Sequence record: OV876907
DNA from: Escherichia phage UGJNEcP3
Strand: one strand, 5' to 3'
Length of the DNA: 64,000 bases
Under the pieces are notes generated by a model. That model worked only from the letters and a program-made list of their open reading frames with translations. It made no database searches and was not told the DNA's origin. The first letter of the stretch is position 1, and the number at the start of each line of letters is the position of its first letter. Below are positions 10,171-29,746 of this stretch, piece after piece. Both the position numbers and the translations under genes were made by a program.

Positions 10171-12480
<2,310 letters not shown>

Positions 12481-12509: not shown

Positions 12510-14492
12510 ATGGCTTTATTATCACCGGGCATTGAGCTCAAAGAAACGTCCGTACAGAGTACTGTCGTTCGTAACGCAACGGGTCGTGCAGCGCTGGTTG
12601 GTAAATTCCAGTGGGGCCCTGCTTTCCAGGTAACTCAGATTACTAATGAAGTTGAACTGGTCGACTTATTTGGAGGTCCTAATAACGAAGTTGCTGATTA
12701 CTTCATGTCGGGTATGAACTTCCTCCAGTATGGTAACGACCTTCGTACTGTTCGTGTTGTTAACCGTGAATTCGCTAAAAACGCGTCTCCGGTAGCAGGT
12801 AACGTCCAAACCACTATTACTACTGCAGGTTCTAACTATGCGGTAGGCGATAAAATTAATATCAAATATAACCAGACTGTTGTTGAATCTGAAGGTCGTG
12901 TAACTTCGGTTGATACCGACGGTAAAATTATGTCGGTGTTTATTCCTACCGGTAAGATTATTTCTTATGCTCGTTCTGTCAACCAATATCCAGACCTTGG
13001 CCCTGCGTGGACGGCCGAAGTAACTTCTGCCTCTTCAGGTGTTTCTGGTACTATTACTGTCGGTAAAATCGTAACCGATTCTGGTATTCTGTTGACTGAA
13101 GCAGAGAACAGTGAAGAAGCTATTACTTCCCTGGAATTCCAAGCATCTCTTAAACAGTTTGCTATGCCGGGCGTAGTTGCTCTTTATCCTGGTGAAATTG
13201 GCAGCACCTTAGAAGTTGAAATTGTTTCTAAAGCAGCTTATGATGCCGGTTCTACTAAAATGTTGGATATTTATCCAAATGGTGGTTCCCGTGCTTCTAT
13301 TGCCAAGGCAGTATTTAACTACGGCCCACAAACAGATGACCAATATGCAATTATTGTTCGTCGTGACGGTGCTATCGTAGAATCCGTCGTACTTTCTACC
13401 AAAGAAGGTGAAAAAGACGTTTATGGTAATAACATTTATCTCGATGACTATTTCGCTAAAGGCACTTCCAACTATATTTTTGCTACCTCTTTGAATTGGC
13501 CTAAAGGCTTCAGTGGTATCATTAATCTGATGGGCGGTGTTTCTGCTAACGATAAAGTTACTGCAGGTGATTTGATGCAGGGTTGGGATTTGTTTGCCGA
13601 TCGTGAAGCACTCCATATTAACCTTTTGATTGCCGGTGCTGTTGCCGGTGAAGGTGATGAAGTTGCTTCTACCGTCCAGAAACACGTGGTGAGCATCGCT
13701 GATGAACGTCAGGATTGCTTGGCATTTATTTCTCCTCCTAAAGGACTGTTGGTTAACGTTCCGTTGACTCGTGCAGTAGATAATCTTATCGACTGGCGTA
13801 CCGGTGCAGGTACTTTCGATGCCAACAACATGAACATTAGCACCACTTATGCTGCTATTGATGGTAACTATAAATATCAGTATGACAAATATAATGACGT
13901 AAACCGTTGGGTGCCTCTGGCCGCTGATATGGCTGGTTTGTGTGCACGTACTGATGATGTTTCTCAGCCTTGGATGTCTCCGGCGGGTTATAACCGTGGC
14001 CAGATTCTTAACGTTCTGAAATTGGCAATTGAACCACGTCAAGCTCAACGTGACCGCATGTACCAAGAAGCTATTAACCCAGTTGTTGGTTTTGCTGGTG
14101 GCGATGGTTTCGTATTGTTTGGTGATAAGACTGCAACTAAAGTTCCATCTCCGATGGACCACATTAACGTTCGCCGTCTGTTCAACATGCTTAAGAAAAA
14201 TATCGGTGATGCCTCTAAATATAAACTGTTTGAATTGAACGACAGCTTCACTCGTTCAAGCTTCCGTATGGAAGTTTCTCAGTACTTAGATGGTATTAAG
14301 GCACTTGGTGGGATTTATGAAGGACGTGTGGTTTGTGATACTACGGTGAACACCCCTGCGGTTATCGACCGTAACGAGTTTATTGCTAATATATACATCA
14401 AACCGGCGAGATCGATAAATTATATCACTCTTAATTTCGTGGCTACTTCTACCGGTGCAGATTTTGACGAGTTGATTGGACCACTAGTTTAA
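12510..14492 (+). CDS. 18: tail sheath protein gp18
   Basis: ORF track; TATAAATA at 12473-12480 upstream; size and position as T4 gene 18. Confidence 0.92.
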   Translation: MALLSPGIELKETSVQSTVVRNATGRAALVGKFQWGPAFQVTQITNEVELVDLFGGPNNEVADYFMSGMNFLQYGNDLRTVRVVNREFAKNASPVAGNVQTTITTAGSNYAVGDKINIKYNQTVVESEGRVTSVDTDGKIMSVFIPTGKIISYARSVNQYPDLGPAWTAEVTSASSGVSGTITVGKIVTDSGILLTEAENSEEAITSLEFQASLKQFAMPGVVALYPGEIGSTLEVEIVSKAAYDAGSTKMLDIYPNGGSRASIAKAVFNYGPQTDDQYAIIVRRDGAIVESVVLSTKEGEKDVYGNNIYLDDYFAKGTSNYIFATSLNWPKGFSGIINLMGGVSANDKVTAGDLMQGWDLFADREALHINLLIAGAVAGEGDEVASTVQKHVVSIADERQDCLAFISPPKGLLVNVPLTRAVDNLIDWRTGAGTFDANNMNISTTYAAIDGNYKYQYDKYNDVNRWVPLAADMAGLCARTDDVSQPWMSPAGYNRGQILNVLKLAIEPRQAQRDRMYQEAINPVVGFAGGDGFVLFGDKTATKVPSPMDHINVRRLFNMLKKNIGDASKYKLFELNDSFTRSSFRMEVSQYLDGIKALGGIYEGRVVCDTTVNTPAVIDRNEFIANIYIKPARSINYITLNFVATSTGADFDELIGPLV

Positions 14493-14522
14493 GTTTACTT
14501 GCTCTAAGCTTTATGGTATAAT
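14493..14522 (+). promoter_or_regulatory. early-type promoter GTTTACT-N17-TATAAT driving the HNH gene
   Basis: GTTTAC right after gp18 stop, 17-nt spacer, perfect TATAAT; hairpin and AAGGA RBS follow. Confidence 0.55.
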
Positions 14523-14544
14523 GCGCGTATACACAATACGCGCA
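14522..14544 (+). promoter_or_regulatory. stem-loop in the HNH gene leader
   Basis: Perfect 9-bp stem TGCGCGTAT / ATACGCGCA with ACACA loop, between promoter -10 and RBS. Confidence 0.45.
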
Positions 14545-14556
14545 AGGATTTCTAAA

Positions 14557-15177
14557 GTGATTATTACTAAATTTGTTGATGTAAAAATAAATACTAACAA
14601 TTACAGTTATTTCTTAGACTTAGGGTATGAGTTGGAACCTCTAGGAGCACCGAAGCATGGGCATAAGTGCCAAACTATTCGAGCAAAAGTTTCTGATTTA
14701 AAGGATGGTTCTAATAAAGAAGTTCAATGTATCTGCGATAAATGTGGCACAGAATTCAAACAAAGGATTGCTAGAAATACCGATGTATGTTATCCTTGTA
14801 GGCGTCATGAAGCTCTTATAGGTAACACCCACGGTAAAGCTAATAAAGGTAAAACTCTACCTCATATGCAAGGTGAAAACCATCCAAGATGGAACCCTAA
14901 TAAATCTGAATACTTTGCTTATGCAGCAAAGGTCAGAGCTGTTACTTATGCTTGTAAAGACGAGTGGATGGCTTGGGAAAATGCCGATAAAATAGGGCTA
15001 TGTGGAGTTGAAGGTGCTTACCAATTAGACCATAAGGTTTCAGTAGCTTATGGGTTCTATAACCATATCCCGGCAGAGATAATTGGACAATTATCAAATT
15101 TAGAAATAATCACTTGGGAATCCAATAGAGCTAAAAGTAAGTCTAGTTCAATAGACTTATGGGACTTACTATCCTAA
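14557..15177 (+). CDS. free-standing HNH endonuclease (putative homing endonuclease)
   Basis: Zn-ribbon CxxC...CxxC then HNH-like LDHKVS...NL...NRAK; no T4 gene at this position; GTG 14557 follows AAGGA; ATG 14521 lies inside a hairpin so start is uncertain. Confidence 0.65.
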   Translation: MIITKFVDVKINTNNYSYFLDLGYELEPLGAPKHGHKCQTIRAKVSDLKDGSNKEVQCICDKCGTEFKQRIARNTDVCYPCRRHEALIGNTHGKANKGKTLPHMQGENHPRWNPNKSEYFAYAAKVRAVTYACKDEWMAWENADKIGLCGVEGAYQLDHKVSVAYGFYNHIPAEIIGQLSNLEIITWESNRAKSKSSSIDLWDLLS

Positions 15178-15324
15178 ATAAATTATATTATTAGTATAAT
15201 CTATTATCCCAGGCTGTAATATAAAGAACCTAAAACCATTATACCATGTGTTTGGTTACAGCGTACATCACGTAGAATTGCGCCTGGGATTGATTATTCT
15301 CTTGGAATATGATTTATCAACTGT

Positions 15325-15332
15325 TATAAATA
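15325..15332 (+). promoter_or_regulatory. T4-type late promoter TATAAATA (gene 19)
   Basis: Exact TATAAATA upstream of gp19; an 8-bp hairpin (15346-15366) lies between it and the RBS. Confidence 0.55.
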
Positions 15333-15384
15333 AATTAATCAGAACGTTCCTGGTGTGTCCAGGAACTGACTTAAGAGGCATCCC

Positions 15385-15876
15385 ATGGAGTTGACAGATA
15401 TCACTCGTGCGTTTGAGTCAGGTGACTTTGCACGCCCTAACCTTTTCGAAGTGGAAATTCCATTTCTCGGTAAAAACTTTAGCTTTAAATGTAAAGCAGC
15501 ACCTATGCCAGCAGGCATTGTAGAAAAAGTACCGGTTGGCTACATGAACCGTAAAATTAACGTAGCTGGTGACCGTACGTTTGATGATTGGACCATTACC
15601 ATTTATAACGATGATGCTCATGACACCCGTCAGGCAATTGTTGATTGGCAGAATCTCTGTCATGGTATGACCAATGAAATCACCGGTGCAGCACCTGCAG
15701 AATATAAGAAACAAGCAGTAGTTCGCCAGTTCCATCGTGACGGCAAGACTGTGACCAAAGAAGTTACAATTTACGGCTTATGGCCTACTAACGTTGGTGA
15801 AGTCCAGATGGATTGGGACAGCAACAACGAGGTAGAAACTTTCGAATCTACGTTCGCTATCGATTGGTGGGAATGA
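15385..15876 (+). CDS. 19: tail tube protein gp19
   Basis: ORF track; AAGAGG RBS; TATAAATA at 15325-15332; size and position as T4 gene 19. Confidence 0.9.
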   Translation: MELTDITRAFESGDFARPNLFEVEIPFLGKNFSFKCKAAPMPAGIVEKVPVGYMNRKINVAGDRTFDDWTITIYNDDAHDTRQAIVDWQNLCHGMTNEITGAAPAEYKKQAVVRQFHRDGKTVTKEVTIYGLWPTNVGEVQMDWDSNNEVETFESTFAIDWWE

Positions 15877-23990: not shown

Positions 23991-24104
23991 AAATCACCAT
24001 AATAAATATAATTAAATAGAAGAGCTAGTAGTCTTCTGTCACCAAGCCAAATGGTTTAACGGAAGGACCTAGACCCATTATAACACATCTAAATTTAAAG
24101 CATA

Positions 24105-24314
24105 TTACTTTGAACCAGAATGCTCTTTGCGCCGAACCTTGTTGTTCAATCTTTTACGATAAACAACCTTTTCTTTCGCTTTAAATTTGACCTTGGCTTG
24201 TTCTACATCAACCCATGCTTTGGCCATGTCCTTAGCGGTCCCGCCCATTTTTTTAGCAATTTCTATAAAATTCAACCCAGATTCGTGTAAAAAATGTACT
24301 TTAACCTTATCCAT
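24105..24314 (-). CDS. small helix-turn-helix protein, hypothetical
   Basis: ORF track; HTH-like segment GLNFIEIAKKMGGTAKDMAKAW then basic tail, resembling IS-family HTH proteins by eye. Confidence 0.5.
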   Translation of the reverse strand: MDKVKVHFLHESGLNFIEIAKKMGGTAKDMAKAWVDVEQAKVKFKAKEKVVYRKRLNNKVRRKEHSGSK

Positions 24315-29316: not shown

Positions 29317-29345
29317 TAACCATAGGACCATTATACACTATTAAT
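29317..29345 (-). promoter_or_regulatory. candidate promoter for uvsY (TATAAT -10 with TGCTG upstream)
   Basis: On minus strand: TTGCTG, about 15 nt, then TATAAT, about 20 nt upstream of uvsY ATG; reminiscent of T4 middle promoters; approximate. Confidence 0.3.
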
Positions 29346-29356
29346 TTGAACAGCAA

Positions 29357-29746
29357 TTAACCACTCTGTGAGAGCTGGATTCTAATTTGCTCTAATGTAT
29401 CTGGGTCATCAACTATACTAAACTGAACCGTTACTATAATCGAGTTATCATCGTACACAGGAGTGACACCTACAGCCAAGGCAGAGATTCGAGGCTCGAA
29501 GTTCCGCACTGCGGAAACTATATTACGCTTAATAGTATCCGTGATTAATGGAGTAATATTCTCAAACAATTGGTTACTGATGTCACAACCAAATTCAGGC
29601 ATAAAAGGGCGTGAACCTTTGCGAGTAGTAATAATGCCTAACAAACTATTTTTAACTGCACGAGCACCTGTAGCTTTAGCGACGTCTCTATTCCAAGACG
29701 TCCTCATTTCAGGGTCTAAATCTGAATACATTTTATTGATATTCAT
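29357..29746 (-). CDS. 25: baseplate wedge subunit gp25
   Basis: ORF track; TAATG overlap with gp26; size and position as T4 gene 25. Confidence 0.85.
   Translation of the reverse strand: MNINKMYSDLDPEMRTSWNRDVAKATGARAVKNSLLGIITTRKGSRPFMPEFGCDISNQLFENITPLITDTIKRNIVSAVRNFEPRISALAVGVTPVYDDNSIIVTVQFSIVDDPDTLEQIRIQLSQSG

Follow-up and report, generated by a model that had tools for sequence, protein, structure and literature searches.

In Escherichia phage UGJNEcP3 (sequence record OV876907, of which a stretch of 64,000 nucleotides, here called the window, was analysed), the tail sheath gene 18 and the tail tube gene 19 are separated by an inserted open reading frame (ORF) of 206 amino acids (aa) and, behind it, by a non-coding spacer holding two inverted repeats. 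We read positions 15200-15384 as a native intercistronic control region of the genus Dhakavirus, made up of a late promoter, two conserved stem-loops that we call H1 (15206-15290) and H2 (15346-15366), and possibly a promoter that points backward; we put the probability of this reading at roughly 60%. The spacer belongs to a general kind of element that is already known, here arranged in a variant way. Escherichia phage UGJNEcP4 (Straboviridae, Tevenvirinae, Dhakavirus) matches the window at 100% identity. In phages of this genus that lack the insert, namely IME08, JS98, and about 40 more records, the gene 18 stop is followed at once by a 185-bp spacer whose bases line up one by one with 15200-15384 at 94-99% identity. 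Altogether, 50 Dhakavirus records contain the spacer at 94-100% identity, and in 45 it is full-length. An earlier note on this DNA had suggested that the stretch could be a remnant of an endonuclease insertion and had named alignment with insert-free relatives as the check. Since those relatives carry the same spacer, the structured stretch is not insertion debris, and that suggestion does not hold for 15200-15384. The insertion-related part of the interval in which the note placed it is confined to 15178-15199, about 22 nt comprising the tail of the inserted cassette and a 9-nt relic of gene 18.

The spacer evolves more slowly than the synonymous sites of the flanking genes, with the exception of one hypervariable patch. 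Counts of variable sites were made on 14 Dhakavirus genomes, and comparisons of stems and invariant positions on 16 Dhakavirus sequences. There were 39 variable sites in the last 187 nt of gene 18 and 31 in the first 300 nt of gene 19, the latter nearly all at third-codon positions, and 26 in the 190-nt spacer. Eight of these 26 belong to the patch and five to a single event in phage ABTNLS3, the inversion of the H2 loop from TGTGT to ACACA, a change consistent with, and suggestive of, repair or template switching at the palindrome. The patch (15297-15304) consists of eight adjacent variable columns, in which the 16 spacers, nearly identical elsewhere, show at least four haplotypes. Immediately beyond it, 15305-15353 is invariant in all 16 genomes. 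Taken as a yardstick of unconstrained drift, the patch indicates that purifying selection acts on the spacer outside it. A metagenome scan with the gene 19 product (gp19) recovered no Dhakavirus-type spacer (the best match had 94% identity in gp19) and added no diversity within the genus.

Both inverted repeats lie where they had first been reported. The arms of the long-range repeat, TCCCAGGC (15207-15214) and GCCTGGGA (15282-15289), can be read directly from the sequence; a repeat search gave 9 bp of 100% complementarity (15206-14/15282-90), and past a bulged T15215 folding adds five pairs to the helix (15216-20/15277-81). The arms of the hairpin, GTTCCTGG (15346-15353) and CCAGGAAC (15359-15366), enclose the loop TGTGT and stand between the TATAAATA box of the late promoter and the ribosome-binding site (RBS) of gene 19. 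Chance expectation was estimated from dinucleotide shuffles of the A/T-rich 207-nt interval. Inverted repeats of 8 bp or more, with the arms at any distance, turned up in 39% of shuffles, which makes the long-range repeat by itself unremarkable; two or more such repeats arose in 9%, and an 8-bp hairpin with a loop of at most 10 nt was uncommon (4%). CCWGG, the Dcm/EcoRII site, is present in all four helix arms (15209, 15283, 15349, and 15359), and four sites, one per arm, were seen in 0 of 2000 shuffles; the density is four in 207 nt compared with 1.6 per kb across the window. Hairpins at the gene 18-19 locus of other genera often hold CCWGG too, and H1 arms could cross-pair with H2 arms over 5 bp.

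RNA folding, which the earlier note had called for on the gene 19 leader, returned stable structures in the spacer with z-scores of about -3. The H1 domain (15200-15296) has a folding free energy of -26.4 kcal/mol and z = -3.0, the same on either strand; H2 has -13.6 kcal/mol and z = -2.8; and the interval 15178-15400 as a whole has -56.5 kcal/mol and z = -3.0. The outermost A/U helix of this last fold (15178-89/15306-17) needs sequence contributed by the insert, which rules it out for phages that lack the insert.

The late promoter of gene 19 is a T4-type box, TATAAATA, on the plus strand at 15325-15332, 52 nt before the ATG and invariant in the 16 genomes. The plus strand of the window holds 12 such boxes, others of which precede genes 18 and 20. 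The T4 late box sits at -13 to -6 relative to the transcript start, and the start of the gene 19 late mRNA is therefore predicted near 15338, which places H2 at about +9 to +29. H2 is a plus-strand hairpin with an 8-bp stem, invariant in the 16 genomes, and a 5-nt loop, which alone varies. In the predicted leader fold, neither the Shine-Dalgarno (SD) sequence AAGAGG (15374-15379) nor the start codon (15385-15387) pairs with H2; beyond H2, there is one weak 5-bp helix (about -3 kcal/mol), the leader as a whole has z = -0.8, and folding turned up no conserved anti-SD partner. The earlier proposal of a leader structure affecting gene 19 translation thus holds in part: H2 is predicted to lie in the leader of the late mRNA, but the SD and the AUG are outside it and lack a conserved partner. 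Sequestration of the RBS by H2, of the type known for T4 e and I-TevI, was rejected because the SD and AUG are unpaired and the promoter lies upstream of both arms. An intrinsic terminator on the plus strand was likewise rejected: H2 is followed by UGACUUAAGAGG, and the terminator scan reports the minus strand only, with a marginal tail (GUUCUGAUUA).

The TATAAATAAATTAA leader is common to Dhakavirus and the Yersinia phages of Tegunavirus (fHe-Yen9-01 and TG1), and in the latter the H2 homologue, GGTTCCTGG/CTAGGAATC, keeps its pairing through G·U pairs that work on the sense RNA only (-17.9 kcal/mol on the plus strand versus -6.4 kcal/mol on the minus strand). Two further spacers in the comparison set (L032 and L033) show the same sense-strand behaviour, and the hairpins of another two (L036 and L038) differ by a compensatory exchange of U-A for C-G. 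Because pairing has been kept by G·U in the former group and by compensation in the latter, H2-type hairpins are, on these predicted pairings, selected as sense-strand RNA.

Structure at this locus extends well beyond one genus. The 110 distinct gene 18-19 spacers of T4-like phages have a median folding z of -2.2. Almost without exception, the T4-like phages of enterobacteria, Aeromonas, and Vibrio have a hairpin of -10 to -17 kcal/mol whose end lies 14-28 nt upstream of the gene 19 ATG. As judged from these predicted folds, a structured 18-19 spacer is the rule in T4-like phages, and the Dhakavirus layout is a permuted variant of it. The common module, seen in T4, Mosigvirus, Jiaodavirus, Mosugukvirus, Roskildevirus, and Aeromonas and Vibrio phages, resembles the present spacer in having, at the same locus, a hairpin after gene 18, a second hairpin beside the late promoter (TATAAATA), an SD, and gene 19. 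It differs in that the promoter usually begins where the hairpin ends, whereas in Dhakavirus, Tegunavirus, and Gaprivervirus the promoter stands at -60 with the hairpin downstream of it, within the leader; in Dhakavirus the first hairpin has also grown into an 85-nt multi-branched domain. The permuted order of promoter and hairpin in three genera provides a natural experiment on what the hairpin does.

H2 is most likely an RNA-level stabiliser or insulator of the gene 19 mRNA, a role proposed from its placement and pairing. Late in infection, RNA polymerase directed by gp55 would start at about 15338, and the gene 19 mRNA would then have H2 near its 5' end, the ribosome site staying accessible. 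There, H2 would help to shield the promoter-proximal transcript from RNases whose attack depends on the 5' end. In RNA reading through from gene 18 or from the early promoter of the cassette, H2 would instead serve as a barrier or a protector of 3' ends. Stem-loops that stabilise a message from a 5'-proximal position are exemplified by the leaders of E. coli ompA and T4 gene 32, in which a stable stem lies near the 5' end of an abundant mRNA and the RBS is free. H2 shares both features and differs in the roughly 8 unpaired nt ahead of its stem; its part in mRNA decay is putative.

H1 is an 85-nt plus-strand domain in which the 9-bp closing helix is followed by the bulged T and five more pairs, with inner hairpins predicted by folding at 15234-38/15253-57 and 15261-64/15270-73. 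Other T4-like phages have a simple G+C-rich hairpin behind the gene 18 stop. H1 takes its place and is, on its predicted fold, an enlarged, multi-branched version of this post-gene-18 hairpin, which nearly all T4-like phages possess. In the H1 stems, four substitutions keep plus-strand pairing (UA to UG twice, CG to UG, and GU to GC) and three pairs are occasionally broken. Counterparts enclosed by a stem occur in Gaprivervirus (z = -3.9) and Marfavirus (z = -4.8). A central H1 motif, CCATTATAC(C/A)(A/G)TG, recurs at the same position within long stems of unrelated sequence in these two genera (Gaprivervirus phages VR20, VR25, VR7, and SP18; Marfavirus phages Marfa, F48, and PhiKpNIH-6), and the Marfavirus hairpin is annotated as a terminator in PhiKpNIH-6. 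The distribution of the motif is patchy, as it is absent from PM2-, IT22-, T4-, and Jiaodavirus-type spacers. The U-rich tail of an intrinsic terminator follows H1 in one haplotype only. The presumed role of H1 is that it would protect the 3' end of the gene 18 RNA or attenuate that RNA.

Inside H1, the minus strand carries a look-alike of a middle-type promoter, GCT-N16-TGGTATAAT (15238-15266). It comprises a MotA-like box, GTACGCTGTA (15266 to 15257), a 13-nt spacer containing TGn (TGG, 15246-44), and a TATAAT -10 element (15243 to 15238) that is invariant in Dhakavirus, Gaprivervirus, and Marfavirus. The layout GTACGCTGTA-N13-TATAATGGTTTTAGG predicts a start near 15231, antisense to the inserted ORF and gene 18. 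The minus strand of the window holds four copies of GCT-N16-TATAAT where 0.4 would be expected; no other spacing is enriched, and the other three sites lie directly upstream of uvsY, rnlB, and a gene of 506 aa. The uvsY promoter (TTGCTGTTC...TATAATGGTCCTATGG, 29330-29360, minus strand) and the rnlB promoter (ATGCTTTAA...TATAATGGGTCTAGG, 24077-24105, minus strand) are the counterparts of T4 PuvsY and PrnlB, which are MotA-dependent middle promoters; T4 has none between genes 18 and 19 (PMC2988021). The consensus of the MotA box is (a/t)(a/t)(a/t)TGCTTtA, 12±1 bp upstream of the -10, with deviations tolerated and an excellent -10 required (PMC2988021). The uvsY promoter of this phage also uses GCTGT in its MotA-type box. 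What follows the -10 at H1 (TATAATGGTTTTAGG) resembles the corresponding sequence at uvsY (TATAATGGTCCTATGG) and rnlB (TATAATGGGTCTAGG), the shared start region being TATAATGG-T/C-rich-TA-G. At the uvsY and rnlB promoters, a 4-bp inverted repeat flanks the -10 (ATAG/CTAT and TAGA/TCTA, respectively).

Both boxes of the H1 element keep identical spacing in Dhakavirus, Gaprivervirus, and Marfavirus, while the intervening 16 nt are unrelated between genera; the MotA-like box of Gaprivervirus is TATGCTTTTA. Phage VR26 keeps a promoter-sized core of 36 nt without the enclosing stem. Within Dhakavirus, there is no polymorphism in the -10, TGn, or GCTGTA, and motA and asiA are annotated in JS98 (type Dhakavirus). 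Reading the element as an early promoter was rejected since it lacks the TTTACA -35 box that the early promoters of this phage use. We rate its function as an antisense MotA/sigma-70 middle-type promoter a real possibility, at somewhat below even odds. If active, it would be insulated by the H1 stem from transcription in both directions. A fuller version, which we think unlikely, is that H1 is an orphan middle promoter, insulated by a stem and conserved within the late tail-gene cluster of Dhakavirus, Gaprivervirus, and Marfavirus, that would supply anti-late RNA or an oriG-like R-loop primer. Such a promoter would fire at early or middle times against genes 18-19. An anti-late RNA made by it would damp premature or read-through expression of the tail sheath, and in this phage the antisense RNA would extend over the inserted nuclease-like gene as well. 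Anti-late transcription has long been described and is poorly mapped; if the proposal is true, the antisense middle promoter would provide either a defined source of it or a new candidate origin, in a genus that has uses in phage therapy. Downstream of the putative promoter, gene 18 contains an antisense open frame of 317 aa (13209-14162, minus strand), which is probably an artefact of codon bias.

The mobile cassette that separates the spacer from gene 18 runs from about 14493 to 15190 on the plus strand; IME08, JS98, and about 40 further Dhakaviruses lack it. It begins with a strong early promoter found by the promoter scan (TTTACT-17-TGgTATAAT, 14494-14522), followed by a stem-loop, GCGCGTAT-ACACA-ATACGCGC (14523-14543), an SD (AAGGA), a GTG start, the 206-aa ORF (14557-15177), and an A/T-rich tail. 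Two imperfectly matching 9-nt copies of the gene 18 terminus flank the cassette. The left copy, CTAGTTTAA (14484-14492), forms the present end of gene 18, as identified by alignment with the TTAGTATAA terminus of insert-free phages. The right copy, TTAGTATAA (15191-15199), is a relic of the original end, TTA GTA TAA, which in insert-free phages makes up the last two codons and the stop of gene 18. The mobile ORF is inserted exactly at the gene 18 stop codon, upstream of the spacer. The ACACA loop of the cassette is complementary to the UGUGU loop of H2, and a loop-loop contact in read-through RNA is conceivable. A plus-strand sigma-70 promoter, TTGAYG-N18-TATAAT, that straddles the gene 18 stop of insert-free phages was considered and set aside: its -35 lies in freely varying synonymous sites, and here it is split by the insert.

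The 206-aa ORF had been labelled an HNH gene. A DH...NL...N motif can be discerned by eye, but no Pfam, NCBIfam, or PDB sequence match was found, and the ORF falls into PHROG 5104, a family of "unknown function" that resembles T6 gp19.1; an HNH nuclease identity is plausible on the motif. Homologues occur in 240 phage records, where they are mostly called "hypothetical"; a few bear a homing or HNH endonuclease label given by the depositors, and the copy in VR7 is annotated as similar to T6 gp19.1. The mobility of the family is clear from comparison of the genomes because the ORF is polymorphic for presence or absence within Dhakavirus, a diverged allele occurs in UP19, a paralogue occupies a second point, and other genera have insertions as well.

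Members of PHROG 5104 are thus found at two different insertion points among Dhakaviruses and also in other genera. The second type, in Bp7, IME540, and phage 005 (L005 1640-2400, L006, and L014), is a paralogue of 223-227 aa at 15324|15325. In these phages, a hairpin (GTCGCAGG/CCTGCGAC) and a TATAAATA box brought in by the insert stand where the native late promoter and H2 would be, and gene 19 begins 3-37 nt after the stop of the inserted ORF. In other genera, gp19.1-type ORFs lie at differing points of the 18-19 junction (L035, L039, VR26 [L027 814-1497], and VR7 [L180 1-145]). On these distributions, tail-gene junctions are recurrent landing sites and the 18-19 junction is clearly a hot spot. 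In PM2 and Bp7, an HNH endonuclease gene is also annotated at the 19-20 junction.

The beginning of gene 19 shows a further trace. In Bp7, IME540, phage 005, and the insert-free ABTNLS3, 5-9 synonymous changes fall in the first 45 nt of the gene and one in the next 75 nt, and the protein is unchanged. Dense synonymous recoding is the usual signature of an immunised nuclease site. The clustering marks the first gene 19 codons (15388-15420, plus strand; L177 1195-1240 in ABTNLS3) as a candidate recognition or immunity site, and because the changes are packed into the first 45 nt, the putative target of the nuclease would be the beginning of gene 19, adjoining H2, and not the long-range repeat. 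Spacers with and without the insert differ no more than insert-free spacers do among themselves, which indicates that H1 and H2 carry no immunity-type recoding for the insert found in the window.

Several observations weigh against the native control region as we describe it. About 8 unpaired nt precede H2, longer than is ideal for blocking 5'-end sensing by the standard of E. coli 5' stabilisers. Bp7, IME540, and phage 005 express gene 19 behind the inserted ORF without H2, so the hairpin is dispensable in that context. The 16 Dhakavirus sequences contain no double-sided covariation, the alignment is so conserved that shuffle controls are uninformative, and conservation alone is no proof of RNA structure. 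The energies of H1 are equal on both strands in Dhakavirus, with the minus strand favoured in Gaprivervirus and the plus strand in Marfavirus. The Dhakavirus MotA-like box is degenerate, with 7 of 10 consensus matches and CGCTG in place of TGCTT, and no minus-strand gene lies downstream of the putative antisense promoter. We infer the late start site, the function of the hairpins, and the activity of the antisense promoter from sequence alone. In a rival account, H1 is primarily an antisense promoter cassette like the PeSL cassettes of Arbiol et al. (2010; PMC2839356), yielding anti-late RNA against gene 18 or priming replication in the manner of T4 oriF/oriG, with the sense hairpin secondary. 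PeSL cassettes are intergenic, combine a sigma-70-type promoter with a stem-loop overlapping or flanking the -10, as here, and are tied to gene insertion and deletion. Their layout of early promoter, stem-loop, SD, and ORF start fits the 5' end of the inserted cassette (14494-14556) well; the H1 element, unlike them, has no -35 match of the TTTACA type in the scan and no downstream ORF, lies in a conserved late module and not in a hyperplastic region, points against the flanking genes, and has a stem that encloses the whole promoter. T4 MotA middle promoters, including PuvsY (oriF) and P34i (oriG), offer another comparison (PMC2988021, PMC3016281): the perfect -10, the TGn, and the GCT box 13 nt upstream are shared, and P34i likewise sits in late-gene territory without a gene of its own. 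The fourfold occurrence of GCT-N16-TATAAT, with two of the other sites being counterparts of T4 PuvsY and PrnlB, the shared start region after the -10, the spacing kept in three genera, the stemless VR26 core, the lack of polymorphism in the key boxes, and the presence of MotA (tolerant of box deviations) and AsiA in JS98 all favour the rival account. Against it stand the degenerate MotA box and missing minus-strand ORF, the loss of TGn in most Marfavirus and all Gaprivervirus copies, the absence of a middle promoter at this locus in T4, and a composition of 34% GC in the 32 nt past the predicted start (40% in the window) with no evident A+T-rich unwinding element. We regard this account as possible but rather unlikely; the activity it calls for is putative.

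The three other explanations are much less probable. T4 offers several precedents for leader hairpins that sequester the RBS, in genes e, soc, and I-TevI (PMC3014915), and H2, lying between a late promoter and an RBS as those hairpins do, might be a translational operator that modulates ribosome access to gene 19. H2, however, leaves the RBS out and does not have the promoter in its 5' arm; with the promoter upstream of both arms, early and late RNAs would fold alike, the opposite of the early/late discrimination at T4 e and I-TevI. The extra pairing of only about -3 kcal/mol and the leader z of -0.8 also count against an operator, and the sole upstream anti-SD-like element, a CUCUU at 15299-303, belongs to one haplotype of the hypervariable patch and is absent from half of the genus, which leaves this explanation very improbable. 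We give as little weight to the idea that the inverted repeats are functionless, arising as chance palindromes or recombination by-products in an A/T-rich spacer. The 39% of shuffles with a repeat of at least 8 bp, the lack of double-sided covariation within the genus, and the dispensability of H2 in Bp7-type phages would fit it. Both stems, however, are described as invariant across the 16 genomes (H1 apart from its four pairing-keeping changes and three sometimes broken pairs) next to a saturated 8-nt patch, substitutions are far sparser than at the synonymous sites of genes 18 and 19, and other genera have hairpins at the same position with different stems and compensatory or G·U changes. 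Equally hard to credit is the spacer as a scar or recognition site of the inserted nuclease-like gene. In its favour are the insertion-derived 15178-15199 with the 9-nt duplication of the gene 18 end, the use of the locus as a hot spot by one ORF family, and the recoded gene 19 start in phages with the second insertion type; opposed to it are a stretch 15200-15384 that is the same in kind in about 40 insert-free genomes and the lack of immunity-type recoding in H1 or H2. Under the native control region reading, the spacer is a resident regulatory region beside the landing point of a mobile gene, and it is not usable as evidence of homing.

A search of 14400-15500 with the Rfam covariance models (cmscan, E up to 10) gave only sub-threshold chance matches, and ARAGORN found no tRNA or tmRNA in the same interval. 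The literature search found no account of the Dhakavirus gene 18-19 spacer, nor of gp19.1-type genes as homing endonucleases. Small ORFs in the spacer were rejected as coding. The only plus-strand ATG ORF inside H1, of nine codons, is not conserved in Gaprivervirus or Marfavirus; a 48-aa GTG ORF (15248-15394) and a 59-aa minus-strand ORF (15339-15518) overlap the promoter, the hairpin, and the gene 19 start; and a 32-aa ORF is annotated by CLB_P2 alone. The surrounding genes all lie on the plus strand, with gene 17 at 10642-12477, gene 18 at 12510-14492, gene 19 at 15385-15876, and gene 20 from 15934 onward.

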